This document shows, one piece after another, positions 8,786-62,340 of a stretch of DNA of 64,000 nucleotides. Under the pieces are notes generated by a model. That model was not told the origin of the DNA. It worked only from the letters and a program-made list of their open reading frames with translations, and did not search any database. Positions within the stretch are counted from its first letter, which is position 1. Every line of letters starts with the position of its first letter. The DNA is taken from the NCBI GenBank assembly GCA_045627865.1, contig JAZQOK010000004.1:6663-70662 (forward strand), given 5' to 3'. The translations under genes and the position numbers were made by a program. Source of the stretch: Bacteroidales bacterium (GTDB lineage Bacteria > Bacteroidota > Bacteroidia > Bacteroidales > UBA3663).

Positions 8786-9988
8786 ATGATGAATATGAAA
8801 AGAAACACATACAATATCCGGAAGCAGGTAGAGCAAATCTCCCTGCTTCTGTTCGTATCTGCCTCGACGCTGTTGGCTGGTTGCCACGGACACGAGCATC
8901 ATGATGATCACGATCATGACCATGAGCACGAAGAACATGAGCATCACAGTGCCAATGGCGTAGAGTTCTCGCACGAGATGAGCGAATCCATTGATTTCGC
9001 AGTCGCTCCTGTAGAGATGCGCCAGATGGGCAACGTAATCCGTAGTGTAGCTAAGGTAATGCCTGCTCAGGGCGATGAAATGATTCTGACCGCCAAGGTG
9101 GATGGTATCGTGCGGTTGAGCAAAAGCGGATTGGCTTTGGGAACCGACCTTCGGGCGGGAGAGGCTATCTGCAGCATCAATGCTTCGGCTACGGCCGATA
9201 ATAATCTCGAGGCACAGCAAGAGCAGGCTAGGGCAGAGTGGCAACGTGCCAAGAGTGAATTGGAACGAATGGAGTCACTTCGTGCCGATCAGTTGGTGCT
9301 TGAAAGTGAATTACAGCGTGCCCGTGCCGACTATGCACAGGCTGAGGCTCAGTACAAGGCACTGCAGAAAGGCTTTGGTCTGGGGTTGCAGAGTGTCGCA
9401 GCTTCGCGTGCCGGGTTTCTGAAGGAGTTGCGTGTGCAGGAGGGTCAGTTTGTTCAGACGGGTGATGTTGTGGCGGTTGTAGCCCAGAACCAGCGTCTGC
9501 AGCTACAGGCGGAAGTTCCTGCTCGTCGTGCCTCGGATCTAAGGAAGACGATAGGTGCAACCCTCCGTCCAATGAATAGTTCCGATATACTCTCTCTTGA
9601 AGATCTGAATGGAAAATTGCTGGCTTATGGACGTCAGTCGGTGGGCAGTAGTTCCTTCCTGACGGTTTCGTTCGAAGTAGATGCCATCGACGACTTGGTG
9701 GTTGGTTCGATGGTAGATCTCTATATACATACGCAGGGCGAAAAAGAGTCGCTTTGTGTGCCAGCTTCCTCTGTGCTCGAGGAGATGGGCAACTATTTCG
9801 TCTATGTACAGGTGGAGCCTGAGTTCTACGAGAAACGTCAGGTGCGTATAGGTGCGACCGATGGTCTTTATACCGAGATCCTCTCTGGACTGGAGATTAA
9901 CCAGAAGGTGGTCAGTCGAGGCGCTGTCCTGGTAAAGTTGCAGCAGGCATCGGGTGGCATTGATCCACATAGCGGACATAATCATTAG
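8786..9988 (+). CDS. Efflux RND periplasmic adaptor (membrane-fusion) lipoprotein with a His/Asp-rich N-terminal metal-binding tract
   Basis: 400 aa with a lipobox LLAGC, followed by HGHEHHDDHDHDHEHEEHEHH. It has coiled-coil and beta-barrel MFP-like architecture and lies directly upstream of the RND pump gene. Confidence 0.8.
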   Translation: MMNMKRNTYNIRKQVEQISLLLFVSASTLLAGCHGHEHHDDHDHDHEHEEHEHHSANGVEFSHEMSESIDFAVAPVEMRQMGNVIRSVAKVMPAQGDEMILTAKVDGIVRLSKSGLALGTDLRAGEAICSINASATADNNLEAQQEQARAEWQRAKSELERMESLRADQLVLESELQRARADYAQAEAQYKALQKGFGLGLQSVAASRAGFLKELRVQEGQFVQTGDVVAVVAQNQRLQLQAEVPARRASDLRKTIGATLRPMNSSDILSLEDLNGKLLAYGRQSVGSSSFLTVSFEVDAIDDLVVGSMVDLYIHTQGEKESLCVPASSVLEEMGNYFVYVQVEPEFYEKRQVRIGATDGLYTEILSGLEINQKVVSRGAVLVKLQQASGGIDPHSGHNH

Positions 9989-10032
9989 ACCCTCTCCGCC
10001 CCTCAAGGGGCACCTCCCCCATAATGGGGAGG
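9988..10032 (+). repeat. GC-rich palindromic element, subtype 1, overlapping the TAG stop of the RND adaptor gene
   Basis: (TA)GACCCTCTCCGCCCCTCAAGGGGCACCTCCCCC-ATAA-TGGGGAGG. Confidence 0.9.
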
Positions 10033-10099
10033 AAAGTTACAACTGGAGGTCAATGGGTATTGATAAATAGAATAAGTACTTTTAATTCTCCTTGCATTC

Positions 10100-18100: not shown

Positions 18101-18278
18101 GTTGCTCCCGAAGTTTTCGGAACGAGCAAAATTTGCGTCGCGTTGCTCCCGAAGTTTTCGGAACGAACAAAACTCGCGTCGCGTTGCTCCCGAAGTTTTC
18201 GGAACGAGCAAAACTCGCGTCGCGTTGCTCCCGAAGTTTTCGGAACGAGCAAAACTCGTGTCGCGTTGCTCCCGAAGT
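18101..18278. repeat. 41-bp tandem repeat, 4 full copies plus a 14-nt partial copy; each unit contains a bulged hairpin
   Basis: The unit is GTTGCTCCCGAAGTTTTCGGAACGAGCAAAACTCGCGTCGC, with copies starting at 18101, 18142, 18183, 18224 and 18265 (partial). Copies differ by only 1-4 substitutions. Within each unit TTGCTC pairs with GAGCAA and CCGAA pairs with TTCGG. Confidence 0.95.
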
Positions 18279-19374: not shown

Positions 19375-20670
19375 TTAGAAGAAGATCAACTGAACGATGA
19401 TGTAGATTGGCAGGAAGATGATCAACGAATACTTGGCCATGTAGCCGAAGAATGAAGGCATCTTTATGCCGCTCTGCTCAGCAATCGACTTGACCATGAA
19501 GTTAGGACCATTGCCGATGTAGGTCAATGCGCCGAAGAATACAGCACCCACGGAGATAGCGCCGAGGAAGGCCTCACTGGCAAGACCAGGAATGCTTGCG
19601 TTCTCAGGAGCCATGGAATTGAAGACCATGGCAGTTGGTGCATTGTCAAGGAAGGCAGAGAGAATACCTGTGCAATAGAGGTACTGCCAAGGCTGTGAAA
19701 GAACCTCCTGAATCTGAGTCTTCATTTCGCCGAGGAACATCAGGGCTGGGGTCATGGTAGCGAAGATGCCGACGAATACACAAGCCACTTCGAGGATTGG
19801 TGTCCAAGAGAAGTTATTGTCCAGACGTGTCTGCTTCTTGGTGGTCAACATACTTGCAACGATGATGGCAATGAATACCCACTCACGGAGTAACTTGATG
19901 TAGAAAGGAGCGTGATGGTCAGCCATGCACTCGATGTACTTGCCATTGATGAACATAGTAGAGGCGATGACGCAAAGCAACCAGAAGATATTAATCAAAC
20001 CACCGAAAGAGATGGCTGTAGTTTGCGAATTGTCTGCCTCGAGGTTCTCCTTGGGTTCCTTCTTATAATAATATGTATCCATGCAGAAATAGGTAGCCAG
20101 CAACAGGATGCCAGTAACAGCCCACTCAGGGGTAAGGCTGAAGAACCAGGTGAAGTCAGCGCCCTTTTGGAAAAGAAGGAACAACGGCGGGTCACCTAGT
20201 GGAGTCAAAAGTCCACCGCAGTTGGCTACGACTGCAATAAAGAACATGATGGTGTGTACCTTGTACTTGCGCTCGGAGATGGTCTGAATCAGCAGACGGA
20301 TCAAGAGCATGGCAGCACCGGTAGTGCCCATGAAAGATGCCAACACCCAACCGATAGCCAGGATGATAGTGTTGGTGATTGGCTTGGCCTTGAGGTCTCC
20401 CTTGATGCGGATACCGCCGGTGGTAACGAACAATGCCATGAGCAAAAGGATGAACGGCACGTAGTCGTAAATCATCTGATGCTCCAACTCGTGGCTCATG
20501 CCGTTGGCGCAGAGCCAAATTGCTACAGGTACGCCCAGAATGAGCGAAACGTAGAGCTTGTGCAGATTGTGTTCCCACCACTCCTCCAACTTGGTGAGTG
20601 GCAATATGGCGATGCAAAGGAGCATGACCACAAAGGGAATCAACATCCACGCAGGAATTAAGTGTTCCAT
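19375..20670 (-). CDS. NhaD/ArsB/CitMHS-superfamily ion transporter (sodium:proton antiporter-like)
   Basis: 431 aa with about 11-12 TM helices. N-terminus MEHLIPAWMLIPFVVMLLCIAILPL...EWWEHNLHKLY. Confidence 0.65.
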   Translation of the reverse strand: MEHLIPAWMLIPFVVMLLCIAILPLTKLEEWWEHNLHKLYVSLILGVPVAIWLCANGMSHELEHQMIYDYVPFILLLMALFVTTGGIRIKGDLKAKPITNTIILAIGWVLASFMGTTGAAMLLIRLLIQTISERKYKVHTIMFFIAVVANCGGLLTPLGDPPLFLLFQKGADFTWFFSLTPEWAVTGILLLATYFCMDTYYYKKEPKENLEADNSQTTAISFGGLINIFWLLCVIASTMFINGKYIECMADHHAPFYIKLLREWVFIAIIVASMLTTKKQTRLDNNFSWTPILEVACVFVGIFATMTPALMFLGEMKTQIQEVLSQPWQYLYCTGILSAFLDNAPTAMVFNSMAPENASIPGLASEAFLGAISVGAVFFGALTYIGNGPNFMVKSIAEQSGIKMPSFFGYMAKYSLIIFLPIYIIVQLIFF

Positions 20671-20671
20671 A

Positions 20672-20717
20672 GGACCCTTCCCCGGCCCCTCCCATTTCGC
20701 TTCGCTAGGGAGGGGAG
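20672..20717 (+). repeat. GC-rich palindromic element, long subtype; G-rich arm abuts the antiporter start codon
   Basis: GGACCCTTCCCCGGCCCCTCCC-ATTTCGCTTCGCTA-GGGAGGGGAG. Together with the adjacent AT-rich/GGTAAC segment (to about 20770) it is homologous to 54000-54094 and 56375-56461. Confidence 0.8.
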
Positions 20718-20817
20718 TAGTTACCTTCTACTTACGGGGATTAATTTTGGTAATTATTAATAATTGTTGTTTGTTTTGTTTTATTGAGAATTTCGACCCA
20801 TGTCTTGTCGCAATACA

Positions 20818-20852
20818 CTCCCTCCCTTCTCAAGGGAGGGTTGGGGTGGGTC
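20818..20852 (-). repeat. GC-rich palindromic element, subtype 2, 4 nt after the lepA stop
   Basis: CTCCCTCCC-TTCTCAA-GGGAGGG-TTGGGGTGGGTC. The reverse complement begins GACCCACCCCAACCCTCCC. Confidence 0.85.
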
Positions 20853-20856: not shown

Positions 20857-22698
20857 TTAGTCGAGTTTCAAAACTGCAAGGAATGCTGTCTGAGGTACTT
20901 CGACTTTGCCAATCTGCTTCATGCGCTTCTTGCCTCGTTTCTGAGCCTCGAGCAGTTTGCGCTTACGGCTGACGTCACCACCATAACACTTGGCGGTTAC
21001 ATCCTTGCGCACCTGCTTGATGGTTTCGCGGGCAATGATCTTGGCACCGATGGCAGCCTGTACTGCTACATCAAACTGCTGACGAGGGATGAGTTCTTTC
21101 AGCTTCTCGCACATGCGACGACCGAAACGCTCTGCATTGTCAACGTGAGTCAGGGTGCTGAGTGCATCGACCTGTTCGCCGTTGAGAAGGATATCGAGCT
21201 TGATCAGCTTCGATGGACGGAAGTCGTGGATGTAGTAATCGAACGAAGCATAACCCTTCGAGATGGATTTGAGCTTGTCGTAGAAATCGATGACGATTTC
21301 GCCCAAAGGCAGGTCGAAGTAGATCTCGACGCGGTTGCCCGAGATGTACTTCTGTTCCACCAGTACGCCACGTTTGTCGAGGCAGAGCTTCATGATGCCA
21401 CCGATGAACTCTGTTTGTGTAATGATGGTGGCACGGATAAATGGCTCCTCGATATGCTCGATGGCCATGATGTCCGGCATGCCCGATGGGTTGTGGATTT
21501 CGGATTCAACGCCATGTTTGTCGAAAATCTTATAGGATACGTTCGGCACCGTAGTGATGACATCCATATTGAACTCACGACCCAGACGTTCCTGGACAAT
21601 CTCCATGTGGAGCAAACCGAGGAAGCCGCAACGGAAACCGAAACCGAGGGCCAACGAAGACTCCGGTACAAACGAGAGCGAGGCATCGTTAAGCTGCAGC
21701 TTCTCGAGCGAAGCACGCAGGTCTTCGTAATCTTCTGGGTCGATAGGATAGACACCGGCGAAGACCATAGGTTTGACCTCCTCGAATCCGGCAATCGCCT
21801 TGTCGCAAGGACGTGCCTGATGGGTAATGGTGTCACCCACCTTCACTTCGGTCGATGTCTTGATACCCGAGCAGATGTAACCTACGTCACCGCACTTGAC
21901 CTCGGCACGAGGTTCCATGTCCATACGGAGGATACCAACCTCGTCTGCATCATATTCGCTGCCGGTATTGACGAACTTGACCTTGTCGCCCTTCTTCATC
22001 GAACCATTCACGATCTTGAAGTAACCGATCACACCCTTATAGCTGTTGAATACTGAATCAAAGATCAAAGCCTGCAATGGAGCCTCCGGGTCGCCCGAAG
22101 GAGCAGGAACTCGTTCGACGATAGCCTCCAGGATCTCAGGAACACCGAGGCCAGTTTTGCCCGAAGCACGGAGAATCTCTTCGCGCTTACAGCCAAGCAG
22201 GTCGATGATTTCGTCCTCAACGAGTTCGGGCATGGCCGAATCCAAGTCGCACTTGTTGATGATTGGAATGATCTCGAGGTTATGGTCGATGGCCATGTAG
22301 AGGTTCGAGATGGTCTGTGCCTGAATGCCCTGCGTACCATCCACGATGAGCAGAGCGCCCTCGCAAGCGGCAATCGAACGTGAAACCTCGTACGAGAAAT
22401 CGACGTGGCCAGGGGTATCAATCAGGTTCAGAATATATTTGCCTGCCTCTTGTTGCTGGCCGATGTGCATGATCTGTTCCTCCTCGTTCAGTTGGCGAGG
22501 GGTGTAGTTGTAATCCATCTGGATGGCGTGGCTCTTGATGGTGATACCACGTTCGCGTTCCAGATCCATGTTGTCGAGTATCTGAGCTTGCATGTCGCGC
22601 TCGGCTACGGTCTTGGTACATTCCAGAAGGCGGTCGGCCAAAGTGGATTTACCGTGGTCAATGTGTGCGATGATGCAGAAGTTGCGGATATTCTTCAT
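20857..22698 (-). CDS. lepA: Translation elongation factor 4 (LepA)
   Basis: 613 aa. Start [25 protein letters not shown], followed by [11 protein letters not shown] and a LepA C-terminal domain. Confidence 0.95.
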
Positions 22699-32357: not shown

Positions 32358-32389
32358 CCCCTCCCTTTACGGGAGGGTTAGGGTGGGTC
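32358..32389 (-). repeat. GC-rich palindromic element, subtype 2, overlapping the leuS TAG stop
   Basis: CCCCTCCC-TTTAC-GGGAGGG-TTAGGGTGGGTC. On the leuS strand it reads TAGACCCACCCTAACCCTCCC..., with the G of the TAG stop being the first base of the element. Confidence 0.85.
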
Positions 32390-46024: not shown

Positions 46025-47200
46025 TTATTGTTCAACTTTCGGTAGTTGACGGAAGTAAATAAGCGAATCGGTTTCGCCCAAACGGATGTGTCGCATCTCG
46101 GTGAGGATACGTTCGGGGTGGAAGGGGGCGACTTCGAAATAATCGGAACGGGCGGTGTTACAACCATAGACCTGTCCCGTCTGTGCCGCCTTGAACTGGC
46201 CATACAGCGGATTCTGGGCAAGCAGTGAGGCAAGTGTCCAGCTGGCTTCTGTGTCAAAGTATTTGAATACCCACACGTCGGCATCGCTGGCTTGTGCATA
46301 GACCGCTTCGGCTGATAATGCCAACGACCCACCATGCGTATCGTCGGCCCAAGGATACTGGAATCCAGCATCCTGATAGATCCAACTGGCCGAGCTGCGT
46401 CCGCCCGGAACATACCAGGTGGCGCCGTAGGGGAGGTCTGAGAGGATGGACCCCCCGTCCCCCTTTAGGGGGAGATCTGAGCTGTCGTTTTGGGATGCTA
46501 TGTTGTTATATTTTGTTTCGATTTCATTGAATAGCTGGTCGGCTTCGGCCGCTTTGTTGACAAGGCGGCCATAGAAGCGCATCCATTCGGCTCGGCCCAG
46601 GGGAGAGGTCTCCTGATAGTCGGCACAATAGATGATGGGAATCTGGGGTAGGATGGCGGTGATCATGGCTTGCGAGCCGGCATCGTAGGGGGTGACCCAG
46701 ATTGCCTCGCTGTTGGCCGAAAGGATAATCTCTGGGTTAGGTGCCATGCTACCTCCCGCCTCGACAATACGACCCGATTCCAATTGGGCCAGAACCTGCG
46801 GATTGAGGATATACTCGGCATCGCACAATACACCGACACAGTCGAGGGCTTGCAGCTCGGCATAGAGCGAGGCATGGCACGAGGCGGTCAACGTCTGTTG
46901 CCGGAGCGGAGTGTGCAGGGTCTGGATCCGTCCGTATTGCGCTTCGATTTCGTCCAGTTCTTCGTCGCTGAGGGTATCGCCCGGGATGAGCAGATACTGC
47001 ATGGCGATACGTTCGGGTTGCCACGGATTGAGGATGCGGCACAGGGTCATGCCATTGTCCAAGTCCTGCATCTGCAGGAGCGAGGCGTAGCGGGTCGATG
47101 CGCCGGTTTGCTGGAGTGGCTCTTCGGGGGTGCGTTGGTGGCAAGCCGAATTCACTCCGACCACGCAAAGAAGTAACAATCGATAGGCGGTTTTTCTCAT
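46025..47200 (-). CDS. ABC-transporter periplasmic binding lipoprotein (BtuF/FhuD-like, Peripla_BP_2)
   Basis: Start placed at ATG 47200 (MRKTAYRLLLLCVVGVNSAC, a lipobox). The architecture is that of an iron-chelate/B12 binding protein. It contains an in-frame palindromic-element insertion at 46448-46474. Confidence 0.65.
   Translation of the reverse strand: MRKTAYRLLLLCVVGVNSACHQRTPEEPLQQTGASTRYASLLQMQDLDNGMTLCRILNPWQPERIAMQYLLIPGDTLSDEELDEIEAQYGRIQTLHTPLRQQTLTASCHASLYAELQALDCVGVLCDAEYILNPQVLAQLESGRIVEAGGSMAPNPEIILSANSEAIWVTPYDAGSQAMITAILPQIPIIYCADYQETSPLGRAEWMRFYGRLVNKAAEADQLFNEIETKYNNIASQNDSSDLPLKGDGGSILSDLPYGATWYVPGGRSSASWIYQDAGFQYPWADDTHGGSLALSAEAVYAQASDADVWVFKYFDTEASWTLASLLAQNPLYGQFKAAQTGQVYGCNTARSDYFEVAPFHPERILTEMRHIRLGETDSLIYFRQLPKVEQ
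46448..46474 (+). repeat. GC-rich palindromic element, short form, inside a coding sequence
   Basis: GGACCCCCCGTCCCCC-TTTA-GGGGGAG. It is flanked by direct repeats GGAGGTCTGAG (46432-46442) and GGAGATCTGAG (46471-46481), spaced 39 nt apart. Confidence 0.85.
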
Positions 47201-47363
47201 TGTTGTGCGTTGTTTGGGTGCAAAGTTGCTTATTTTTTGTGAGATGACCAAACAAAACGACGTTATTTTTAATTTTATCGTCGGTTTTTAAACCTTTCGA
47301 CGATGCCTTTGTCCTACTCATATTATTATATATAATGGTTATATTTAATTTCTGCTTATTGTA

Positions 47364-50364: not shown

Positions 50365-50414
50365 CTTAATCGTTGTGGGTTGCAACCCTATGCACTTAAA
50401 GCAATATAGAAAAG

Positions 50415-50449
50415 GGCTTGCGAGACACAGCGTCTTGCGAGCCTTTTTT
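50415..50449 (+). terminator. Intrinsic (attenuator) terminator in the trp leader
   Basis: 12-bp stem GGCTTGCGAGAC / GTCTTGCGAGCC with two G-U pairs and the 5-nt loop ACAGC. It is followed by T6, 40 nt upstream of the trpB ATG. Confidence 0.75.
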
Positions 50450-50488: not shown

Positions 50489-51682
50489 ATGAAAACTTAT
50501 AACGTTGATGAAAACGGCTACTATGGCCAGTTCGGTGGAGCCTACATTCCAGAGATTCTCTACAAGACCGTCGAGGATCTGAAGAAGGCTTATTTGCCAA
50601 TTATTGAGAGCAAGGAGTTCCAGGATGAATATCGTGCCCTTTTGAAGGACTATGTGGGCCGTCCGTCGCCACTCTATTTCGCTAAGCGAATGAGCGAGAA
50701 GTATGGTTGTCAGCTCTACCTGAAACGTGAGGACTTGAACCATACCGGAGCACACAAGATCAATAATGCCATCGGACAGATTCTGATTGCCAAGAAGATG
50801 GGCAAGAAGCGTATCGTGGCTGAGACCGGTGCCGGACAGCATGGTGTGGCTACCGCTACCGTATGTGCGCTGATGGATATTCCTTGTCGTGTCTATATGG
50901 GTGCCACGGATGTGGCTCGTCAGCGTCCGAATGTGGAGCGTATGCGTATGCTGGGTGCTGAGGTTTTCCCTGTCGAGAGCGGCAACAAGACCCTCAAGGA
51001 TGCGACCAATGAGGCTATTCGCGACTGGTGCTGCCATCCAGCCGATACATTCTATATTATTGGTTCGACCGTAGGCCCACACCCTTATCCTGACATGGTG
51101 GCTCGTCTGCAGGCAATCATCAGCGAGGAGATCAAGTGGCAACTCCAGGAGAAGATCGGTCGTGACTATCCGGATTACCTGATGGCTTGTGTGGGCGGTG
51201 GTTCGAATGCTGCCGGTACCATCTACCACTACATCGACGACGAACGTGTGAAACTCGTGCTCGGTGAAGCTGGCGGTATGGGTTATGAGACAGCCGAAAC
51301 AGCCGCTTCGATCACCATCGGTACAGTAGGTATCCTGCACGGTAGCCGCATCAAACTCATGCAAACCGAGGATGGTCAGATCATCGAACCTTATTCCATC
51401 TCTGCCGGTTTGGATTATCCAGGCACAGGTCCAATCCATTGTAATCTGGCTGATCAGGGTCGCGCCAAGGTATTGCCTATCAACGACGATGAGGCGCTTC
51501 GTGCAGCCTTCGAGTTGACCCGCATGGAGGGTATCATCCCAGCACTTGAATCCAGCCATGCTTTGGCCATGTTGCCTAAGATGAAGCATCTCTTCAAGCC
51601 TGAGGATGTAGTCGTACTGACTGTCTCTGGCCGTGGCGACAAGGACCTTGAAACCTACTTGAAGCACAAAGAGACCCTCTAA
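50489..51682 (+). CDS. trpB: Tryptophan synthase beta chain
   Basis: 397 aa. GQFGGAYIPE...LNHTGAHKINNA (PLP-Lys)...GGGSNA. Confidence 0.95.
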   Translation: MKTYNVDENGYYGQFGGAYIPEILYKTVEDLKKAYLPIIESKEFQDEYRALLKDYVGRPSPLYFAKRMSEKYGCQLYLKREDLNHTGAHKINNAIGQILIAKKMGKKRIVAETGAGQHGVATATVCALMDIPCRVYMGATDVARQRPNVERMRMLGAEVFPVESGNKTLKDATNEAIRDWCCHPADTFYIIGSTVGPHPYPDMVARLQAIISEEIKWQLQEKIGRDYPDYLMACVGGGSNAAGTIYHYIDDERVKLVLGEAGGMGYETAETAASITIGTVGILHGSRIKLMQTEDGQIIEPYSISAGLDYPGTGPIHCNLADQGRAKVLPINDDEALRAAFELTRMEGIIPALESSHALAMLPKMKHLFKPEDVVVLTVSGRGDKDLETYLKHKETL

Positions 51683-51700
51683 ATCTCCCTTTAGGGAGAC
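51673..51700 (+). repeat. Degenerate short-form palindromic element spanning the trpB stop
   Basis: GACCCTCTAAA-TCTCCC-TTT-AGGGAGA-C is followed by TTTTT. The GACCCTCT terminus is shared with the family. Confidence 0.5.
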
Positions 51701-51728: not shown

Positions 51729-53174
51729 ATGACAATGTTCAAATATCATACAGCATCGAAAACGATACTTGGCGATCTTTGTACTCCGGTATCTGTATAT
51801 CTGAAGGTCCGCGATGCCTATCCGCAGTCGGCTCTGATGGAGTCGAGCGATTATCATGGGGGCGAAAATGCCAAGTCCTTCATCGGCTTGCATCCGATTG
51901 CCAGCGTTTCGATCGCACATGGCGTAGGTATTGCCAAGTTCCCCGATGGAACCGAGATCTCGCACCCAATCACCAAGGAATATGGTTCGGCTCAGGTGAT
52001 CAACGACTTCCTGGCTTCGTTCGAGGTATCGGGCGAAAAGAGCAACTACTGCGGTTTGTTCGGCTATACTTCGTTCAACGCAGTACGTTATTTCGAAAAC
52101 ATCAACGTGAAGGATGAGACCCAGTCGGAGAATGATGCACCTGATCTGCTCTATATATTATATAAAGATGTAGTGGTGTTCGACCATTTCCGCAACGAAA
52201 TGATCCTGATCGAGCTCTTGAGCGAGGGCGAGGAGGATGACCTGGATCAGTTGGAACGTGACTGCCAGAGCCGTGCTTATCAGACCTACGATTTCCATCC
52301 GGTGGGTGACTATTGGTCAACTTTGACCGACGACGAACATCGTGCCAACATCCGCAAGGGAATCCAGCATTGTCTGCGTGGTGATGTGTTCCAGATTGTT
52401 CTGTCGCGACGTTTCAAGCAGAAGTACGAGGGCGATGACTTCAAACTCTACCGTGCGTTGCGTAGCATCAACCCAAGTCCATATCTGTTCTACTTTGATT
52501 TCGGCGGCTTCCGTATCTTCGGCTCAAGTCCTGAGACCCATTGCCGTATAGAAAAGACCCCCCTGCCCCCTTTAGGGGGAGAAGGAACCTCCCAGACAAG
52601 ATATACCGCCTACATCGATCCGATTGCGGGTACAACCAAACGTACTGGTAATGCGGAGCAGGACCGACAGAATGCCCTCTATCTGAAGAATGATCCGAAG
52701 GAGAATGCCGAGCATGTGATGCTGGTGGATCTGGCTCGTAATGACCTGAGCCGTAACTGCCATGGTGTGCATGTGGACTTCTACAAGGATATGCAGTTCT
52801 ACAGTCATGTGATTCACTTGGTGAGTCGTGTGAGTGGCGAGTTGGACGAAGGTGCTGATCCAATCAAGGCCTTCATCGATACTTTCCCTGCAGGAACCCT
52901 GAGTGGCGCTCCTAAGGTTCGAGCCATGCAGCTCATTAGCGAATATGAACCACACAACCGTGGCGCTTATGGCGGCTGTATCGGATTCATCGGCTTCGAC
53001 AAGAGCCTCAATCAGGCCATCACGATCCGCACTTTCGTGTCTCGCAACAACGAACTCTGGTTCCAGGCGGGTGGCGGTATCGTTGCCAAGAGCGATGTAG
53101 AATATGAACTTCAGGAGGTGAACAATAAGTTGGGTGCCCTCCGTAAGGCAATCTTAATGGCAGAGAAGCTATAG
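51729..53174 (+). CDS. trpE: Anthranilate synthase component I
   Basis: 481 aa. LVDLARNDLSR, GTLSGAPKVRAMQLI and GGGIVAKSD are present. It contains an in-frame palindromic-element insertion at 52556-52581. Confidence 0.95.
   Translation: MTMFKYHTASKTILGDLCTPVSVYLKVRDAYPQSALMESSDYHGGENAKSFIGLHPIASVSIAHGVGIAKFPDGTEISHPITKEYGSAQVINDFLASFEVSGEKSNYCGLFGYTSFNAVRYFENINVKDETQSENDAPDLLYILYKDVVVFDHFRNEMILIELLSEGEEDDLDQLERDCQSRAYQTYDFHPVGDYWSTLTDDEHRANIRKGIQHCLRGDVFQIVLSRRFKQKYEGDDFKLYRALRSINPSPYLFYFDFGGFRIFGSSPETHCRIEKTPLPPLGGEGTSQTRYTAYIDPIAGTTKRTGNAEQDRQNALYLKNDPKENAEHVMLVDLARNDLSRNCHGVHVDFYKDMQFYSHVIHLVSRVSGELDEGADPIKAFIDTFPAGTLSGAPKVRAMQLISEYEPHNRGAYGGCIGFIGFDKSLNQAITIRTFVSRNNELWFQAGGGIVAKSDVEYELQEVNNKLGALRKAILMAEKL
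52556..52581 (+). repeat. GC-rich palindromic element, short form, inside the trpE coding sequence
   Basis: GACCCCCCTGCCCCC-TTTA-GGGGGAG is translated as (K)TPLPPLGGE. It is almost identical to the copy at 46448-46474. Confidence 0.85.
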
Positions 53175-53223
53175 ACCCTCTCCGCCCCACAAGGGGGCAC
53201 CTCCCCCTTAATGGGGAGGGGAG
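53174..53223 (+). repeat. GC-rich palindromic element, subtype 1, overlapping the trpE TAG stop
   Basis: (TA)GACCCTCTCCGCCCCACAAGGGGGCACCTCCCCC-TTAA-TGGGGAGGGGAG. It is about 90% identical to 9988-10032. Confidence 0.9.
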
Positions 53224-53273
53224 TATGGTTGATGCTGGCAAGAGGGAAATATAGTTGAATTATAAATAAAAAT

Positions 53274-53930
53274 TTGATGAATAATAACGACAATAAAATA
53301 CAAACTATTTCTCCCTCCCCATTAAGGGGGAGGGCTGGGGAGAGGGTCTCAGTCGTCATCATCGACAACTACGATTCGTTTACCTACAACCTCTCGCACC
53401 TGGTCAAGGAGCTTGGTGCCGAAGTGACTGTGTATCGTAACGATCAGTTCCAGATGGAGCAGTTGGAAGCTTTCGACAAGATCATCCTTTCTCCAGGCCC
53501 AGGCATTCCATGTGAGGCAGGATTGTTGCTCGACGTGATTAAGGCATACGCCGGCAAGAAACCAATTCTGGGCGTTTGTCTCGGACATCAGGCCATCGGC
53601 GAGAGCTTCGGCGGCACGTTGACCAACATCGGACAGGTCATGCATGGTGTGGCAACTCCATGTCACATCACTAAAGATGACTATCTCTTCGAGGGTTTGT
53701 CTAAGGATCTTGAGATTGGCCGTTACCACTCGTGGGTAGTTGATCAGCAGAACTTCCCGGATTGCCTGGAGGTAACCTCCGTGTCGGACGAGGGTTACAT
53801 CATGTCGCTCCGTCACAAGGAATACGACATCCGTGGCATCCAGTATCATCCTGAGTCTGTATTGACTCCTGATGGCAAGGCTATATTGAAGAATTGGCTA
53901 TATGGACCCTCCCCCGAACCCCTCCCATAA
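53274..53930 (+). CDS. trpG: Anthranilate synthase component II (glutamine amidotransferase)
   Basis: 218 aa. The core is VVIIDNYDSFTYNL...GVCLGHQAIG...IQYHPES. The first ~25 and last 8 codons are encoded by palindromic-element sequence. Confidence 0.9.
   Translation: MMNNNDNKIQTISPSPLRGRAGERVSVVIIDNYDSFTYNLSHLVKELGAEVTVYRNDQFQMEQLEAFDKIILSPGPGIPCEAGLLLDVIKAYAGKKPILGVCLGHQAIGESFGGTLTNIGQVMHGVATPCHITKDDYLFEGLSKDLEIGRYHSWVVDQQNFPDCLEVTSVSDEGYIMSLRHKEYDIRGIQYHPESVLTPDGKAILKNWLYGPSPEPLP
53311..53348 (-). repeat. GC-rich palindromic element, subtype 1, reverse orientation, inside the trpG 5' coding region
   Basis: CTCCCTCCCC-ATTAA-GGGGGAGGG-CTGGGGAGAGGGTC. It is the inverted partner of 53174-53223. 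Confidence 0.9.
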
Positions 53931-53950
53931 TGGAGGGGAGAGGTTTGAAA
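53905..53950 (+). repeat. GC-rich palindromic element, subtype 2, containing the trpG stop codon
   Basis: GACCCTCCCCCGAACCCCTCCC-ATAATG-GAGGGGAGAGGTTTGAAA. The TAA stop (53928-53930) lies in the hairpin loop. The GAGAGGTTTGAAA tail is shared with 56278-56321. Confidence 0.9.
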
Positions 53951-54022
53951 CGTGTGGTCGAATTCCTAATGGAGCAATCCAATACCTAAATAATTAACAA
54001 TTGACAATTAATAATTAACAAT

Positions 54023-54094
54023 GTTACCAATCCCCCGATAGCAATAGGTAACTGCTCCCTCCCCCTAAAGGGGGTCGGGGGTCCGGGGTGGGTC
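54023..54094 (-). repeat. GC-rich palindromic element, long subtype, ending 3 nt before ATG 54098
   Basis: GTTACCAATCCCCCGATAGCAATAGGTAAC-TGCTCCCTCCCCC-TAAA-GGGGG-TCGGGGGTCCGGGGTGGGTC. It is about 90% identical to 56388-56461. Confidence 0.95.
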
Positions 54095-54097: not shown

Positions 54098-54292
54098 ATG
54101 AAACAATTTTTCTGCAATTTGCTAGCTACAGTAGTTTGCTTTTCTGTTGGCTTTGTGATCATTCACTATTTGTTCGTTTGGTTCGGTTGGAGTCAGTCAG
54201 AACCACTCCTCAATACTTTGGCTTATGGTGCAGGAATGGGTGTGTTATACCAGATTACCATTAGTCTATATTATTTAATCAAGAAAAAATGA
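54098..54292 (+). CDS. Small two-TM membrane protein of unknown function embedded in the trp operon
   Basis: 64 aa: MKQFFCNLLATVVCFSVGFVIIHYLFVWFGWSQSEPLLNTLAYGAGMGVLYQITISLYYLIKKK. Its stop overlaps the trpD start (ATGA at 54289-54292). Confidence 0.5.
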   Translation: MKQFFCNLLATVVCFSVGFVIIHYLFVWFGWSQSEPLLNTLAYGAGMGVLYQITISLYYLIKKK

Positions 54293-55284
54293 AACAATAC
54301 CTTTTGAAACTCATCGCTGGTGAAACCCTCTCACAGGAGGAGACCCACCAGATCATGCTCAACATCGTTCAGGAGCAATACAACGTACAACAGATTGCAG
54401 CTTTGCTGATGGCTCTGCAAACCCGTGGAGCAACCGTCGATGAATTGCTTGGCTTCCGTCAGGGTCTTCTCGAAACGGGTAAATATATTAATGTAGAGGA
54501 TTATAATACACTCGATATTGTCGGTACCGGTGGCGATGGTAAGAATACCTTCAACATCTCGACCTGTTCGGCTTTCGTCATAGCTGGTGCTGGCTACAAA
54601 GTCTCGAAGCATGGCAACGGAGGAGCCACTTCTGTATCGGGTGCATCGAATGTACTGGAGGGTCATGGCGTGAAGTTCACCGACGACGAAAGCAAGTTGC
54701 GTCGTTCGTTGGAGGAGGCTGGTATCTGCTATTTCCATGCTCCTTTGTTCGCCTATGGCATGAAGTTCGTGGGCCCTACCCGTAAGGCTTTGGCTGTGCC
54801 TACTTGCTTCAATCTGCTGGGCCCATTGGTAAACCCTTGTCATCCGAAGAATTCGTTGCACGGTACTGCCAATCAGAGCCAGTTGCGTCTCTATACCAAT
54901 ATTCACCAGAAGATCGGCGATAACTATGGTGTAGTTACCTCTTACGATGGCTACGACGAAATCTCCCTCACCTCGGGCTTCAAGATCTGCACCAATAATT
55001 TCGAAAAGGTGCTCACTCCTGTCGATCTGGGCTTGAAGTATGTCAAGCAGGAGGAGATCTTTGGTGGCAATACTGCAGCCGATGCCATGAAGATCTTCGA
55101 TGCTGTGCTGGATGGTTCAGCTACCGAGGCTCAGAAGAACGTGGTGATTGCTAATGCTGCCTGCGGTATCAGCGTGATGAACATGAACCTCTCGATGGAG
55201 GATTCGGTTGCTGCTGCCCGCGAATCGTTGGAGAGTGGCAAGGCTCTTCAGGTATTCAAGAAGTTCGTTGAGATTAACAGTTAA
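54289..55284 (+). CDS. trpD: Anthranilate phosphoribosyltransferase
   Basis: 331 aa. DIVGTGGDGKNTFNIST...KHGNGGATS. Confidence 0.95.
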   Translation: MKQYLLKLIAGETLSQEETHQIMLNIVQEQYNVQQIAALLMALQTRGATVDELLGFRQGLLETGKYINVEDYNTLDIVGTGGDGKNTFNISTCSAFVIAGAGYKVSKHGNGGATSVSGASNVLEGHGVKFTDDESKLRRSLEEAGICYFHAPLFAYGMKFVGPTRKALAVPTCFNLLGPLVNPCHPKNSLHGTANQSQLRLYTNIHQKIGDNYGVVTSYDGYDEISLTSGFKICTNNFEKVLTPVDLGLKYVKQEEIFGGNTAADAMKIFDAVLDGSATEAQKNVVIANAACGISVMNMNLSMEDSVAAARESLESGKALQVFKKFVEINS

Positions 55285-55295: not shown

Positions 55296-55324
55296 GACCC
55301 CCTCCCAGCCTCCCCGTGGGGAGG
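55296..55324 (+). repeat. GC-rich palindromic element, subtype 3, 11 nt after the trpD stop
   Basis: GACCCCCTCCCAGCCTCCCC-GT-GGGGAGG. It is identical to the reverse complement of 57144-57172. Confidence 0.9.
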
Positions 55325-55384
55325 AGTGGGTAGATAGAATGGGTGTTCGGTTATTTATATAATAGTTAAACGATAAATCACTTA

Positions 55385-55436
55385 CCCTCCAGTGGTGTCA
55401 AAAAACTCCTCCCCTCGGGGAGGTCGGGAGGGGGTC
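55385..55436 (-). repeat. GC-rich palindromic element, subtype 3, ending 2 nt before the trpC ATG
   Basis: CCCTCCAGTGGTGTCAAAAAACTCCTCCCC-TC-GGGGAGGTCGGGAGGGGGTC. It is about 85% identical to 57121-57172. Confidence 0.9.
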
Positions 55437-55438: not shown

Positions 55439-56278
55439 ATGAAAGATATTCTCGAAGAAATAGTAGCCAACAAACGTGAGGAGCTGGCTGTAGCGATCAG
55501 CGATCTGCCGTTGGAGACGTTGAAGAAGTTCACCGAGCAGAAGATCGCTCGCGATGGCGCTCTGAAACTCCGTTCCATGCGACAGAGTCTGGCTCAGTCG
55601 CAGAGCGGTATAATCGCCGAGTTCAAACGCAAGAGCCCAAGCAAGGGCTGGATTCATGCCGATGTTGAACCCGAAGATGTAGTGCCTAAGTATGCCGAAG
55701 GTGGTGCTTCGGCCAGCAGCATCCTGACCGACGAGAAATACTTCGGCGGTAAACTGGAGTTCATTCAGCGAGTACGAGATCTGGCTCCAAATCTGCCTCT
55801 GCTTCGCAAGGAATTTATCATCGACGAATATCAGCTCTACGAGGCTCGTCTGGTTGGTGCTGATGCTGTGCTGCTTATTGCGGCCGATCTGCATCCTGCT
55901 CAATATGGAGAACTCTTGCAAGTGGCACATAGTTTGGGCTTGGAGGTTCTGCTCGAGGTGCATGACTCTGCCGAACTGGAGTATCTGAAGGCTGGTGTGC
56001 CAGACATGTTGGGTGTCAACAACCGTTCGTTGGGTACTTTCCATACCGATGTGCAGCACAGTTTCGATATTGCGATCGAGATGCAACGTGCGGTCAAGGA
56101 GTTGTGTTTGTCGGACGAAGAGGCTCCGCTGTTGGTCAGCGAATCGGGTATCGGCAATCCTTCGGTTGTCAAACTGTTGCGTGAGAAGGGCTTCCGTGGC
56201 TTCCTGATCGGAGAGTGCTTCATGAAGGAGGCTGATCCAGGTCTTGCTCTGAAAGAGTTTATCCAGCAGACCTTATAG
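55439..56278 (+). CDS. trpC: Indole-3-glycerol-phosphate synthase
   Basis: 279 aa. IIAEFKRKSPSKG...LRKEFIIDEYQLYEAR...LLEVH. Confidence 0.95.
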   Translation: MKDILEEIVANKREELAVAISDLPLETLKKFTEQKIARDGALKLRSMRQSLAQSQSGIIAEFKRKSPSKGWIHADVEPEDVVPKYAEGGASASSILTDEKYFGGKLEFIQRVRDLAPNLPLLRKEFIIDEYQLYEARLVGADAVLLIAADLHPAQYGELLQVAHSLGLEVLLEVHDSAELEYLKAGVPDMLGVNNRSLGTFHTDVQHSFDIAIEMQRAVKELCLSDEEAPLLVSESGIGNPSVVKLLREKGFRGFLIGECFMKEADPGLALKEFIQQTL

Positions 56279-56321
56279 ACCCACCCCTAACCCTCCCTCG
56301 TTGGGAGGGAGAGGTTTGAAA
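56278..56321 (+). repeat. GC-rich palindromic element, subtype 2, overlapping the trpC TAG stop
   Basis: (TA)GACCCACCCCTAACCCTCCC-TCGTT-GGGAGGGAGAGGTTTGAAA. Confidence 0.9.
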
Positions 56322-56350
56322 TAATGGGTCAAAATTATTCTCTATACCTT

Positions 56351-56366
56351 GTGGGTGGAGAGGGTC
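56351..56366 (-). repeat. Truncated subtype-1 terminus in reverse orientation
   Basis: GTGGGTGGAGAGGGTC followed by TA. The reverse complement, TAGACCCTCTCCACCCAC, matches the start of the 53174 copy. Confidence 0.7.
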
Positions 56367-56387: not shown

Positions 56388-56461
56388 GTTACCAATCCCT
56401 CGATAGCAATAGGTAACTGCTCCCTCCCCCTAAAGGGGGGCGGGGGGTCCGGGGGTGAGTC
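56388..56461 (-). repeat. GC-rich palindromic element, long subtype, ending 2 nt before the trpF ATG
   Basis: GTTACCAATCCCTCGATAGCAATAGGTAAC-TGCTCCCTCCCCC-TAAA-GGGGGG-CGGGGGGTCCGGGGGTGAGTC. Confidence 0.95.
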
Positions 56462-56463
56462 TT

Positions 56464-57105
56464 ATGATTGTAAAAGTTTGCGGCATGACAAGTGCCGATA
56501 ATATAAAAGCTGTGGAGGCTGTATTGGCCGATACACAAGCAACTGAGAAGTGGATGGGTTTCATCTTCTGGGAGCCATCGAAACGTAATTGTGCCACCAA
56601 GCCCGATTATCTGCCCGTGGATTGCAAACGCGTAGGCGTGTTTGTGAATGCAGAGGTCGAGGAGGTTGTGAAACGTGCGGTGGAGTTCGGTTTGACCCAC
56701 ATCCAGTTGCATGGCGACGAGAACCGCCAGTACATCATGGCTTTGCGTCAGGCTCTGGCTGCTGCCAACAACAAATGCGTCATCATCAAGGCGTTGAGTC
56801 TGAAGGTAGCCAACGATGTTGAAAAGTGCGAACCCTACGTCGGCTTTGTCGATTACTTCCTGTTCGATACGCCAACCACAGGCCGTGGCGGTAGCGGTAA
56901 CAGCTTCGACTGGAAACTGCTGGAGGGTTACCGCATGATGACTCCTTTCATTCTGAGCGGTGGCATCGGATTGGATAGTGTCGAATCTCTCAAACAGTTC
57001 AGTCATCCCTGTTGGGAGGGCATCGACCTCAACTCTAAGTTTGAGTCGGCTCCAGGCATCAAGGATGCAAAGAAACTTCGTGAATTTATAGTAAATATCA
57101 ATTAA
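56464..57105 (+). CDS. trpF: Phosphoribosylanthranilate isomerase
   Basis: Start placed at ATG 56464 (MIVKVCGMTS...) rather than the GTG at 56455, which lies inside the repeat. Also ...HIQLHGDE.... Confidence 0.9.
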   Translation: MIVKVCGMTSADNIKAVEAVLADTQATEKWMGFIFWEPSKRNCATKPDYLPVDCKRVGVFVNAEVEEVVKRAVEFGLTHIQLHGDENRQYIMALRQALAAANNKCVIIKALSLKVANDVEKCEPYVGFVDYFLFDTPTTGRGGSGNSFDWKLLEGYRMMTPFILSGGIGLDSVESLKQFSHPCWEGIDLNSKFESAPGIKDAKKLREFIVNIN

Positions 57106-57120: not shown

Positions 57121-57172
57121 CCCTCCAGTGGTGTCATTAAACACCTCCCCACGGGGAGGCTGGGAGGGGGTC
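57121..57172 (-). repeat. GC-rich palindromic element, subtype 3, ending 3 nt before the trpA ATG
   Basis: CCCTCCAGTGGTGTCATTAAACACCTCCCC-AC-GGGGAGGCTGGGAGGGGGTC. Confidence 0.9.
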
Positions 57173-57175
57173 TTT

Positions 57176-57952
57176 ATGAATAGAATCAATCAACTTTTTG
57201 CCAATAAACCACAGAATCTTTTGAGTCTGTATTTCTGTGCCGGAGCTCCTACGCTCGATGGTACAGCCGATGTGATCCGTACGCTCGAGAAGAACGGAAT
57301 CTCGATGATCGAGGTGGGTGTGCCATTCTCAGATCCTATGGCCGATGGTCCTGTGATCCAGGAGGCAGCTACCAAGGCTTTGCGCAACGGTATGTCGTTG
57401 CGTCTGCTGTTCGACCAACTGAAGGATATTCGTCAGGATGTCACCATTCCTCTGATCCTGATGGGTTATCTGAACCCAGTCATGCAGTATGGCTTCGATA
57501 ACTTCTGCAAGAAGTGTAATGAAGTGGGCATCGATGGCGTGATCATTCCAGATCTGCCATTCAAGGACTATATGGAGGAGTATAAGCCTATTGCCGACAA
57601 GTACGATATTCGTATTATCATGCTCATTACTCCAGAGACCAGCGAAGAAAGAATCCGCTTCATCGACCAGAATACCGATGGTTTCATCTACATGGTCTCT
57701 TCTGCCGCCATTACGGGTGCGCAGAAGGAGTTCAACGATGCCAAGCAGGCCTACTTCAACAAGGTACATGCCATGAACCTCCAGCATCCAACCATGATCG
57801 GTTTCGGTATCTCCAACAAACAGACCCTTGAGTCGGCTCAGGCTAATGCCAATGGTGCCATCATCGGTTCGAAGTTCGTGCAGTTGCTGGATGCTGCCAA
57901 TGGCGATGCACAAGTCGCTATCGACCAGCTTTATGATGCATTAAAGCAATAA
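57176..57952 (+). CDS. trpA: Tryptophan synthase alpha chain
   Basis: Start placed at ATG 57176 (MNRINQLFANK...) rather than the GTG at 57128, which lies inside the repeat. Also EVGVPFSDPMADGPVIQ. Confidence 0.95.
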   Translation: MNRINQLFANKPQNLLSLYFCAGAPTLDGTADVIRTLEKNGISMIEVGVPFSDPMADGPVIQEAATKALRNGMSLRLLFDQLKDIRQDVTIPLILMGYLNPVMQYGFDNFCKKCNEVGIDGVIIPDLPFKDYMEEYKPIADKYDIRIIMLITPETSEERIRFIDQNTDGFIYMVSSAAITGAQKEFNDAKQAYFNKVHAMNLQHPTMIGFGISNKQTLESAQANANGAIIGSKFVQLLDAANGDAQVAIDQLYDALKQ

Positions 57953-61388: not shown

Positions 61389-62288
61389 ATGAAAAAGAAA
61401 TTTTGTGGTGTGGTAGTGCCGATGGTTACTCCCGTTACTCCACAGGGAAACCTCGATGTTGAGGCTGTTGTTAGAATTATCTCTCTGTTCGTCAAGAATC
61501 AAGTCAATCCATTGCTGATGGGAACCACCGGCGAGGGTAACTCTGTGAGCCAGGCTGATGCCCGTCTGATGGTCGAAACTGCCGTCAAGGCCGCTCAAGG
61601 CAAGATTACCGTCTATGCAGGTCTGACCGGTTGCTGCATCAGCGAACAGATGAAGCAGGTCGATGCCTTCACCCAAGCTGGAGCCGATGTGATTGTGGCT
61701 ACTTTGCCTTCGTACTATGCGCTCACCCCCGAACAGATGTACACCTACTATAAGAATCTGGCTGACTACAGTTCGAAGCCGGTCATGCTCTATAATATCC
61801 TGGCGACTACCCACATGACCATTCCTGTCGATGTGGTCAAGCAGCTGGCTGATCATCCGAACATCGTTGGTCTCAAGGATAGCGAACGTGATCTGGAACG
61901 TATGGCACAATGTATTGCCATCAGCAAGGATCGTGCCGACTTCAGTTACTTCTGCGGATGGGCTGCCCAGAGCCAGTACAGCTTGTCGTTGGGTGGCGAT
62001 GGTATCGTGCCCAGTACCGGTAACTTTACTCCTGGCATGTTCCGCGATTTGTACGAAGCAGCCGTTGCCGGCAACATGGACAAGGCGATTGAGCTCCAGA
62101 ACACAACCAACGAGATTGCCAAGATCTATCAGGCAGGTCGTACCTTAGGCCAGTCTTTGACCGCCCTCAAAGTGATGATGCAGACCGAGGGCCTCTGTAC
62201 TCCAGATATGCTGGCTCCATTGACCCGTCTGTCGGCCGAAGAGGAGGCTGAGATTGCTGCCAAAGCTAAGTCAACCGTTCATTATTAA
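61389..62288 (+). CDS. Dihydrodipicolinate synthase/N-acetylneuraminate lyase family aldolase
   Basis: 299 aa. GVVVPMVTPV...GTTGEG...IVGLKDS, containing the Schiff-base Lys. Confidence 0.8.
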   Translation: MKKKFCGVVVPMVTPVTPQGNLDVEAVVRIISLFVKNQVNPLLMGTTGEGNSVSQADARLMVETAVKAAQGKITVYAGLTGCCISEQMKQVDAFTQAGADVIVATLPSYYALTPEQMYTYYKNLADYSSKPVMLYNILATTHMTIPVDVVKQLADHPNIVGLKDSERDLERMAQCIAISKDRADFSYFCGWAAQSQYSLSLGGDGIVPSTGNFTPGMFRDLYEAAVAGNMDKAIELQNTTNEIAKIYQAGRTLGQSLTALKVMMQTEGLCTPDMLAPLTRLSAEEEAEIAAKAKSTVHY

Positions 62289-62316
62289 TTCTTAATACCA
62301 TCCTCCCCTATGAATT

Positions 62317-62340
62317 CCCCCTAAAGGGGGTTAGGGGGTC
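62317..62340 (-). repeat. GC-rich palindromic element, short form, ending 5 nt before the symporter ATG
   Basis: CCCCC-TAAA-GGGGG-TTAGGGGGTC. The reverse complement is GACCCCCTAACCCCCTTTAGGGGG. Confidence 0.85.

Follow-up and report, generated by a model that had tools for sequence, protein, structure and literature searches.

Nineteen copies of a short GC-rich palindrome, which we call the GACCC element after its conserved terminus, lie in a 64,000-nucleotide stretch of Bacteroidales DNA from a Prevotella-like gut or rumen bacterium (contig JAZQOK010000004.1, positions 6,663 to 70,662; hereafter the window). Together they make up a palindromic repeat family that is genuine and abundant in Prevotella-like bacteria; we found no name for it, and it is not a new kind of genetic system. 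We consider it probable (about 70%) that they are non-autonomous mobile DNA palindromes, of the same kind as repetitive extragenic palindromes and their inverted doublets (REP/REPIN), miniature transposable elements with inverted repeats (MITEs) and Rickettsia palindromic elements (RPEs). This reading draws on dispersed near-identical copies, strain differences, the presence of both orientations, and survival only where reading frames are spared; that copies occupy gene junctions or are translated within genes in frame, and that close relatives lack them at the corresponding sites, points to selfish mobile DNA. Inverted doublets, insertions absent from relatives and in-frame copies that donate start and stop codons are three features that go beyond an earlier note on this DNA. 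What sets the family apart is its frequent in-frame intragenic copies, its donation of starts and stops, its G-quadruplex-prone arms and its look-alikes in other phyla.

Detection of the elements

The earlier note had described at least 18 GACCC elements, and all 18 positions carry the motif, with some of the starts off by one nucleotide (GGACCC at 20672 and 46448). A covariance model built from 51 related copies adds a nineteenth, diverged copy at 544-586 (core 548-583); in the window it gives 17 full-length matches at E<0.1 and weakly recovers the two shortest of the listed copies, at 46445 and 51669. The pattern GACCCNYYYYN{1,6}CCYCCCN{2,9}GGGRGG matches seven times in the window, against 0.00 expected from 100 dinucleotide-preserving shuffles, and every hairpin of a C-arm and a G-arm with a stem of at least 5 bp lies inside a listed element or the copy at 548-583. 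Two pairs of copies that had been put at about 90% identity measure 93% (54023-54094 and 56388-56461) and 91% with one gap (9988-10032 and 53174-53218), while 55296-55324 is, as reported, the exact reverse complement of 57144-57172.

Like the earlier note, we could not assign the family to a named element. Rfam returned no matches at the gathering threshold, permissive E-values gave only spurious matches to microRNA-precursor models, and no published description was found in the literature by organism, repeat type or literal end sequences. A Pfam scan of the large open reading frames (ORFs) found no transposase domain in the window, as had been stated, and the window holds no tRNA or Rfam family.

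Anatomy of the unit

Oriented alike, all units open with (A)GACCC and continue through 4-6 nt of C/T tract, a linker of 2-4 nt (often AA, AG or GA), a C-rich arm and a loop of 2-14 nt (mostly 2-7) to a complementary G-rich arm. The counts that follow cover 96 copies, which comprise the covariance-model matches in the window, in two short contigs of the same species and in 36 related Bacteroidales loci (~354 kb in all); L001, L002 and L124, relatives free of the element, gave zero matches. Terminal GACCC is present in more than 90% of the 96 copies, A occupies position -1 in 66%, and positions -2 to -4 are A-rich as well. A perfect Watson-Crick stem of at least 6 bp forms in 91 of the 96, with stems of 6-10 bp. 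There are at least six arm versions (CCCCTCCC, CCCTCCC(T), CCTCCCC, CCCTCCCC, CCCCTCC and CCCCC), and because each meets its exact complement, the hairpin is maintained through compensatory change. Pairing was scored copy by copy; the model-made alignment set the low-complexity arms out of register, and covariation counts from it are uninformative.

The first tract looks as though the arm had been copied in tandem. The arrangement GACCCACCCC-GACCCTCCC-loop-GGGAGGG is found in many copies, and 54055-54094 on its own strand reads GACCCACCCCG-GACCCCC-GACCCCC-TTTA-GGGGG, so that a unit is two direct copies of a ~10-nt motif plus one inverted copy. The long copies of the types that the earlier note numbered 3 and 4 hold additional shared modules, GTTACC...GGTAAC (as in the arm 54023-54094) and CCCTCCAGTGGTGTCA. 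The modules GTTACCAATCCC.CGATAGCAATAGGTAAC and CCCTCCAGTGGTGTCA are not of low complexity and are found at separate loci, and the window copies that share such modules are 89-93% identical. The variation behind the four proposed types is real, but it is better read as a set of arm variants that grade into one another and pair up in doublets, for which reason we dropped separate families for the types; the units do combine mosaically, as had been suggested.

Eight canonical G-quadruplex motifs occur in the 64 kb, all on the G-rich strand of elements, compared with 1.3 expected (for example GGGAGGGTTGGGGTGGG). The doublet at 20673-20852 bears a motif of this type on each arm, and the unit at 32358-32389 bears the motif GGGAGGGTTAGGGTGGG. 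An obligatory G-quadruplex was rejected, as type-3 arms are without four G3 tracts and not every arm variant keeps four G-tracts. Two other candidate identities were also set aside. Only some arms match the FtsK-orienting polar sequences (KOPS, GGGNAGGG), and each hairpin would hold that motif on both strands; as for triplex-forming mirror repeats, the C-tracts mirror each other in some copies and are direct in others, and the commonest tract contains A. Separately, in type-3 copies (L264, L267, L277, L281, L256, L271 and L278) what lies just inside the hairpin is often a run of short tandem repeats with a 7-9 nt period, built from GTAATGA, GTTGAAA, CTTTTCA, CTCTTCA or CCAAACGA.

Inverted doublets

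Ten of the 19 window units are the arms of five inverted doublets of the form GACCC...GGGTC, 89-190 bp long, which occupy entire intergenic spacers; four of the five lie within the trp operon. The fifth takes up all of the spacer that separates the start of the citrate-transporter gene (CAT 20668-20670) from the stop of lepA (20857-20859). Doublets are also the main form in related Bacteroidales loci: among the 96 matches, window included, there are 27 convergent pairs and no divergent ones were seen, and lengths across the window and related loci run from 75 to 344 bp. Single-strand folding of six doublets yielded z-scores from -3.6 to -15.5, and four of these have near-perfect stems of ~35-40 bp. 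The trpD/trpC doublet forms a single long hairpin (-81 kcal/mol, z = -8.0), and the arms are fully complementary in L021, L079 and L019. Doublets combining the same unlike arms recur within one genome. Nested or repeated ends also occur; in 18% of ends another GACC[CA] stands outside, no more than 30 nt away, compared with 4.6% in the background. At one rumen Bacteroidales locus (L053, 6061-6255), five head-to-tail units of 37-38 nt are followed ~90 nt on by one inverted copy, a cluster like the bacterial interspersed mosaic elements (BIMEs) of enterobacteria.

Insertions relative to close relatives

Three relatives whose TrpD is 89-93% identical (L001, L124 and L002) have the same trp operon with zero elements, and their trp genes overlap or almost touch, with trpE/trpG joined as TTATGA and trpD/trpC as TGATG. 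The trpD/trpC doublet of the window is present in L122 and L123 and absent from all three of these relatives. L122, at 94% DNA identity, is without the doublet that follows trpG in the window; its sequence there reads ...AATTGGTTAAATCATTAAACACATTGCTATGAAA..., and its trpG contains 36 nt derived from an element (IGTPCEGKSERV) in place of the 12 nt (LSKD) of the window, a surplus of 24 nt. As judged by these sequence comparisons, the copies prove to be insertions relative to close relatives. The same copies recur at matching positions in L122 and L123, which are independent assemblies. None of the available comparisons, all of them diverged, shows a target-site duplication; the flanks are reverse-complementary (an A-run and a T-run) rather than direct repeats.

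Placement at gene boundaries and in frame

The GACCC end adjoins a long-ORF boundary in 71% of the 96 copies. Stop codons cluster 2-11 nt before this end, often as TAGACCC or TAAAAGACCC, and ATGs 3-7 nt beyond it (GGGTCTTTATG). In nine single units, only 0-6 nt separate the GACCC end from a gene boundary, and in none is the hairpin end so close. For type-3 copies well inside contigs, 41 of 106 (~39%) fall in long ORFs, compared with 64% of random positions, and the intragenic ones are mostly translated as TPSQPPRGEE, DPLPASPRGG or SSPRGGREGV. The type-3 core is free of stop codons in all frames, and the ORFs remain intact across the intragenic copies of the window. These data show that copies persist only where genes survive: at junctions, where the element gives a stop codon of its own (TAG or TAA, at the GACCC end) or closely precedes or contains a start codon, or in tolerant loops where stop-free copies of the right length become short Pro/Gly-rich inserts.

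Within the trp operon, the elements supply parts of the genes themselves. The trpE/trpG doublet gives the last base of the trpE TAG stop, and the ancestral ATG of trpG has been lost to it, so that the ORF now crosses the right arm from an ATG at 53277, 72 nt upstream; in L122, an ATG in the hairpin loop acts as the trpG start (MREGRGRV...). The C-terminus of trpG runs into the left arm of the next doublet (YGPSPEPLP and then the stop), and the doublet after trpC completes the trpC TAG stop. The unit at 56388-56461 stops 2 nt short of an ATG at 56464 that aligns with the trpF start (MIVKVCGM), and the unit at 57121-57172 stops 3 nt short of an ATG at 57176 that aligns with the trpA start of relatives. 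At the 3' end of trpB, the hairpin and CTTTTT of 51673-51699 look like a terminator. The elements probably do not owe their existence to the strong hairpins of the trp mRNA or to G-quadruplex-prone DNA, both of which would be side effects.

Two window copies are intragenic. One of them lies in a loop of trpE, at a site where the window has 54 nt and L002 has 9 nt, and TrpE homologues of 464-512 aa carry varied element-like inserts at the same loop as well as element-like N-terminal extensions; insertions seem to land in this loop, or to be tolerated there, again and again. In L001 (4633-4674), the same loop holds a different palindromic insert (AAAGTCACTCACTCGGCTGAGGGTCAGAGTGATTTTTAC). The other copy (46449-46474) encodes DLPLKGDGGS in the minus-strand reading frame of the periplasmic binding protein, within a linker whose length differs from one homologue to the next; a search of solved structures with this protein gave no match. 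A further case may be found in Candidatus Prevotella equi, where an element (L057, 4370-4444) sits between separate hisI-like and hisE-like ORFs. In the group to which this organism belongs, hisI and hisE are usually one fused gene, and the element may have split hisIE.

Distribution in Bacteroidales and other phyla

The motif is not confined to the window, an outcome that the earlier note had named as refuting, and recurs in dozens of rumen/gut Bacteroidales genomes and at more than 100 metagenome loci. The 29-nt type-3 core (GACCCCCTCCCRRCCTCCCCNNGGGGAGG) has at least 124 copies on metagenome contigs, with at least 105 distinct unrelated flanks, and at these sites (at least 105) the cores are identical or differ at only four positions. 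When the general pattern was searched in species-representative genomes, about one-third of the 119 loci listed belonged to rumen/gut Prevotella, Bacteroidaceae or Bacteroidales. These results show that copies are scattered through genomes of the rumen/gut Prevotella-like clade.

Similar repeats occur well outside this clade. Rhizobium and its allies carry convergent doublets AAAGACCCCTCCCCAACCCCTCCCC...GGGGTTGGGGAGGGGTCTTT (also AAAGACCCCTCCCCAACCCCTCCCC...GGGGTCTTT), Sphingomonadaceae carry divergent doublets, with a perfect 48-nt palindrome in Novosphingobium, and the pattern also matches repeat families in cyanobacteria, Planctomycetes, Chloroflexi and viral contigs. The pattern itself imposes GACCC and C-arms, and ~10^3 chance matches are estimated in the 596 Gb searched, so lone matches in GC-rich genomes mean little; chance does not account for identical variants that recur in a genus, nor for matches paired at 100 nt or less. 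It is conceivable, if doubtful, that the Prevotella elements are one branch of a hitherto unrecognised superfamily of C-tract palindromes that crosses phyla (GA plus a C-tract, a second C-tract and an inverted G-tract), spread by a widely distributed enzyme or by copying driven by DNA structure. Repeats of this layout whose cores are near-identical recur in Rhizobium, Sphingomonadaceae, cyanobacteria, Planctomycetes and viral contigs. If so, superfamily elements in rumen Prevotella would be a large-scale source of ~10-residue Pro/Gly-rich inserts and of new start and stop codons. One 41-kb viral contig with 63% G+C (IMGVR_UViG_3300042731_011251; L129 and L148) carries six copies of GACCCCCC-N5-CCCCCC-loop-GGGGGG, all on a single strand and ~0.5-1.3 kb apart, an arrangement that fits an orientation-dependent role between phage genes.

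A possible mode of movement

If the elements are mobile, an enzyme encoded elsewhere in the genome would recognise the terminal GACCC, the C-tract and the hairpin and make the copies. We lean towards a single-strand mechanism of HUH/Y1 type, similar to that of REP or IS200/IS605 elements, because no target duplication is visible, 12-14 nt separate the hairpin from the end, and the polarity of the GACCC end beside an A/T-rich flank is fixed. The comparison draws on what is established for the REP and IS200/IS605 families.

Several observations weigh against mobile DNA. No mobilising enzyme was found; Pfam gave no transposase in the window. The only direct test of the proposed mechanism, a tblastn search of ~2.8 Mb of fetched loci with IS200 TnpA and E. 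coli RayT, using approximate query sequences, lent it no support: it returned only one RAYT gene (L029, 2860-3713, Xanthobacteraceae; 49% identical to the approximate E. coli query), and this gene is flanked by classic GTAG REPs (GTAGGGCGCGCAAAATCGCCC), not by GACCC elements. The filled/empty comparisons show 12-22 nt of target replaced rather than merely interrupted, and all of the site pairs compared are below 99% identity, with no clean pair among them. At L026, two doublets have identical arms around unrelated ~20-nt centres; simple copying of a whole doublet would not predict differing centres, which may be a sign that the arms are under selection or gene conversion. Finally, 12 of the 19 window copies sit in the trp operon, which allows a function linked to trp. 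In favour of a non-autonomous element, no gene travels with the copies: the proteins that recur beside them are only housekeeping ones, the commonest apparently ABC-type ATPases, with dehydrogenases and Mur ligases among the others. No element ends were seen to bracket a transposase; the 2.6 kb between two L057 copies consists of housekeeping genes. We also note that L029 holds a C-tract doublet 1.9 kb from its RAYT gene.

Alternative explanations

The elements could instead be cis-acting structures kept by the host, acting here in the trp operon as mRNA stabilisers, processing sites, weak bidirectional terminators or insulators, or as hairpin/G-quadruplex expression switches. Exact placement at gene boundaries with a fixed polarity would suit such a role, as would flanks that resemble bidirectional terminators in being rich in A on one side and in T on the opposite one, arms that are conserved while the doublet centre drifts, the confinement of all eight canonical G-quadruplex motifs to elements, and the crowding of copies into one operon. 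Within elements, 51684-51699 and the arm 55408-55423 pass a terminator scan; however, they are the only element sites that do, the total of terminator-like sites is no higher than in shuffles, the T-run after the hairpin is missing in most copies, and four G-tracts are not kept by every arm variant. That the same operon is element-free in relatives, with its genes overlapping, led us to drop a trp-specific regulator, and presence or absence varies between strains that are 94% identical. Furthermore, both orientations occur on one transcript, so that which strand the mRNA shows, C-rich or G-rich, depends on the side of the gene and not on one RNA function, and ~39% of type-3 copies lie within coding sequence. 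On balance, we find a host-kept role unlikely.

The tandem array at L053 and the nested or repeated ends would follow from a local origin without transposition, through slippage and template switching at C-tracts together with inverted duplication, in which case the repeats of other phyla would be convergent. Such an origin would agree with the low-complexity arms, with the finding of neither a target-site duplication nor a transposase, and with the layout of two direct C-tracts plus one inverted that is shared by Rhizobium, Sphingomonadaceae, cyanobacteria, Planctomycetes and viral contigs. It is quite improbable given a 29-nt core that is near-identical at 105 or more unrelated sites, modules not of low complexity that are common to separate loci, and the recurrence in one genome of doublets pairing the same unlike arms. 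As the window probably comes from a metagenome-assembled genome and short contigs end at repeats, we also considered chance, low-complexity sequence and assembly error; against seven pattern matches where shuffles give none, agreement of the independent assemblies L122 and L123 on copies and sites, and ORFs that stay open through intragenic copies, the likelihood of this is negligible.

Comparison with known repeats

Mobile palindromes of several kinds resemble the GACCC elements. REP/REPIN sequences are mobilised by RAYT tyrosine transposases and have been described mainly in Proteobacteria. Like them, the GACCC element is an imperfect palindrome, short and rich in GC, one end of which bears a conserved tag; it forms inverted doublets that fold as one long hairpin, is noncoding with many copies per genome and no visible target duplication, and lies mostly between genes. 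In contrast, its tag is (A)GACCC plus a C-tract, with no GTAG (GT[AG]G) and no CGTC; its arms are strand-asymmetric, one all C and the other all G; it does not hold to an extragenic location, as the 41 of 106 type-3 copies and two window copies inside genes attest; and no RAYT gene was found beside any copy in the window or the ~2.8 Mb of fetched loci. The earlier note's comparison with REP/BIME elements or MITEs thus holds for the general kind of dispersed palindromic repeat; membership of the enterobacterial REP/BIME group does not, since without a GTAG tag or a linked RAYT gene the elements are not canonical REPs.

RPEs are ~100-150 bp long and are not known to be made of C and G tracts. 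They too are palindromes inserted in frame in protein genes and translated with the reading frame kept, but they differ from GACCC elements in sequence, tag (CGTC), GC content and host phylum. Yeast mitochondrial GC clusters are mobile short GC-rich palindromes in AT-rich spacers, sometimes in genes, and are not known to have a transposase of their own; they belong to a eukaryotic organelle and have unrelated sequences, and the likeness is one of analogy only. CGTC-tagged repeats, with RPEs among them, are reported to lack a dedicated transposase (Di Nocera et al. 2013, PMC3733652).

The doublets also resemble MITEs such as the Correia elements of Neisseria and BrickBuilt and MITEPgRS of Porphyromonas gingivalis (PMC4596501), in that they have terminal inverted repeats of 35-45 bp, measure 75-350 bp, encode no protein and often lie at gene ends; internal short tandem repeats are a feature of some GACCC elements as they are of the P. 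gingivalis MITEs. They differ in that neither a target-site duplication nor a parent insertion sequence with matching ends was found, and single arms are as common as doublets. IS5-type ends (GAGACC...) were rejected as a match, the likeness extending over only 5-6 bases. In PMC3733652, some RAYT-like genes are described as flanked by other inverted-repeat families with a GGGGWSAS motif; these TIRtron/TIRYT families are moderately abundant, some are doubly palindromic, and they occur as singles, dimers and clusters. The type-1 end GGGGAGAG(GGTC) fits GGGGWSAS, a lead only; other GACCC-element variants do not fit, and no TIRYT gene is at hand.

The elements have practical consequences. They break assemblies (contigs L122 and L123 begin or end in elements), mislead gene callers by creating or extending ORFs and shifting starts and stops, and equip many proteins with short Pro/Gly-rich peptides. 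Like the CGTC-tagged repeats, they are an abundant palindrome for which no mobilising enzyme is known, and hundreds of near-identical copies at junctions and inside genes put a search for that enzyme within reach. Testable leads come from the G-quadruplex-prone strand, from how densely one operon is occupied and from look-alike families of other phyla.

Elements and surrounding genes of the window

The window has ~50% G+C and promoter boxes of the Bacteroidota type (TTTG / CAAAGATA). Its gene content, assigned with Pfam, is ordinary housekeeping and includes an RND efflux system, lepA, leuS, and lipopolysaccharide and glycosyltransferase genes. A BtuF-like binding protein and a TonB-dependent receptor are also encoded, and the plus strand holds a full trp operon. 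The nearest named homologues of its TrpD belong to Prevotellaceae/Bacteroidaceae metagenome-assembled genomes, at 86-87% identity. The element copies and the trp genes are listed in Table 1.

Table 1 GACCC elements of the window and genes of the trp operon, in order of position.
Feature	Coordinates	Strand	Length (bp)	Details
Diverged single unit	548-583	+		GACTCACTCC GG CCCTCTC-CGCTCA-GAGAGGG AGAG; covariance-model match 544-586, 16 bits, E=0.011
Single unit, two hairpins	9988-10032	+		First G completes TAG stop of HlyD-like gene (8786-9988); 91% to 53174-53218
Inverted doublet	20673-20852	.	180	Left arm 20673-20717 (+), right arm 20818-20852 (-)
Single unit	32358-32389	-		GGGTC end touches leuS stop, distance 0 (ORF 32389-35256, minus strand)
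Intragenic copy	46449-46474	+		In periplasmic binding protein gene 46025-47251; weak covariance-model match
trpB	50489-51682	+		
Short unit at trpB 3' end	51673-51699	+		trpB stop TAA (51680-51682) within unit
trpE	51729-53174	+		
Intragenic copy in trpE	52556-52581	+		Read in frame within TPLPPLGGEG, in loop
Inverted doublet, trpE/trpG	53174-53348	.	175	Left arm 53174-53223 (+), right arm 53311-53348 (-)
trpG	53277-53930	+		
Inverted doublet, trpG/small ORF	53905-54094	.	190	Left arm 53905-53943 (+), right arm 54023-54094 (-)
Small membrane ORF	54098-54292	+		
trpD	54289-55284	+		
Inverted doublet, trpD/trpC	55296-55436	.	141	Left arm 55296-55331 (+), right arm 55385-55436 (-)
trpC	55439-56278	+		
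Inverted doublet after trpC	56278-56366	.	89	Left arm 56278-56314 (+); right arm 56351-56366 (-) truncated
Long unit	56388-56461	-		GTTACC hairpin module and core 56420-56461; 93% to 54023-54094
trpF	56455-57105	+		Listed ORF starts at GTG 56455
Single unit	57121-57172	-		CCCTCCAGTGGTGTCA module and core 57141-57172
trpA	57128-57952	+		Listed ORF starts at GTG 57128
Short single unit	62317-62340	-		Ends 5 nt ahead of sodium:solute symporter start (62346)

Upstream of the operon, a hairpin with an 18-bp stem followed by TTTTTTGTTTAATTTT (50409-50449) lies ~40 nt before trpB and probably serves a trp leader or attenuator as terminator; a gathering-score Rfam scan over this position matched no family at threshold, the Bacteroid-trp leader included. 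The small ORF between trpG and trpD encodes a hydrophobic protein of 64 aa, overlaps the trpD start and has a weak DUF6404 match below the Pfam cut-off. Its position is kept in L001 and L122, and only ~45-55 nt are found at the same site in L124 and L002.

Two further repeats were observed in the window. Between an AMP-binding enzyme gene and an acyltransferase gene, a tandem array (18101-18278) holds 4.3 copies of a 41-nt unit (GTTGCTCCCGAAGTTTTCGGAACGAGCAAAACTCGCGTCGC) that are 96% matching, each with an internal palindrome; 41-nt tandem repeats have been reported inside the MITEPgRS elements of P. gingivalis (PMC4596501). In addition, a minus-strand ORF of 1172 aa with no Pfam match (41475-44993) contains a 366-nt unit twice at 83% identity (43356-44187), and looks like a repeat-domain surface protein.

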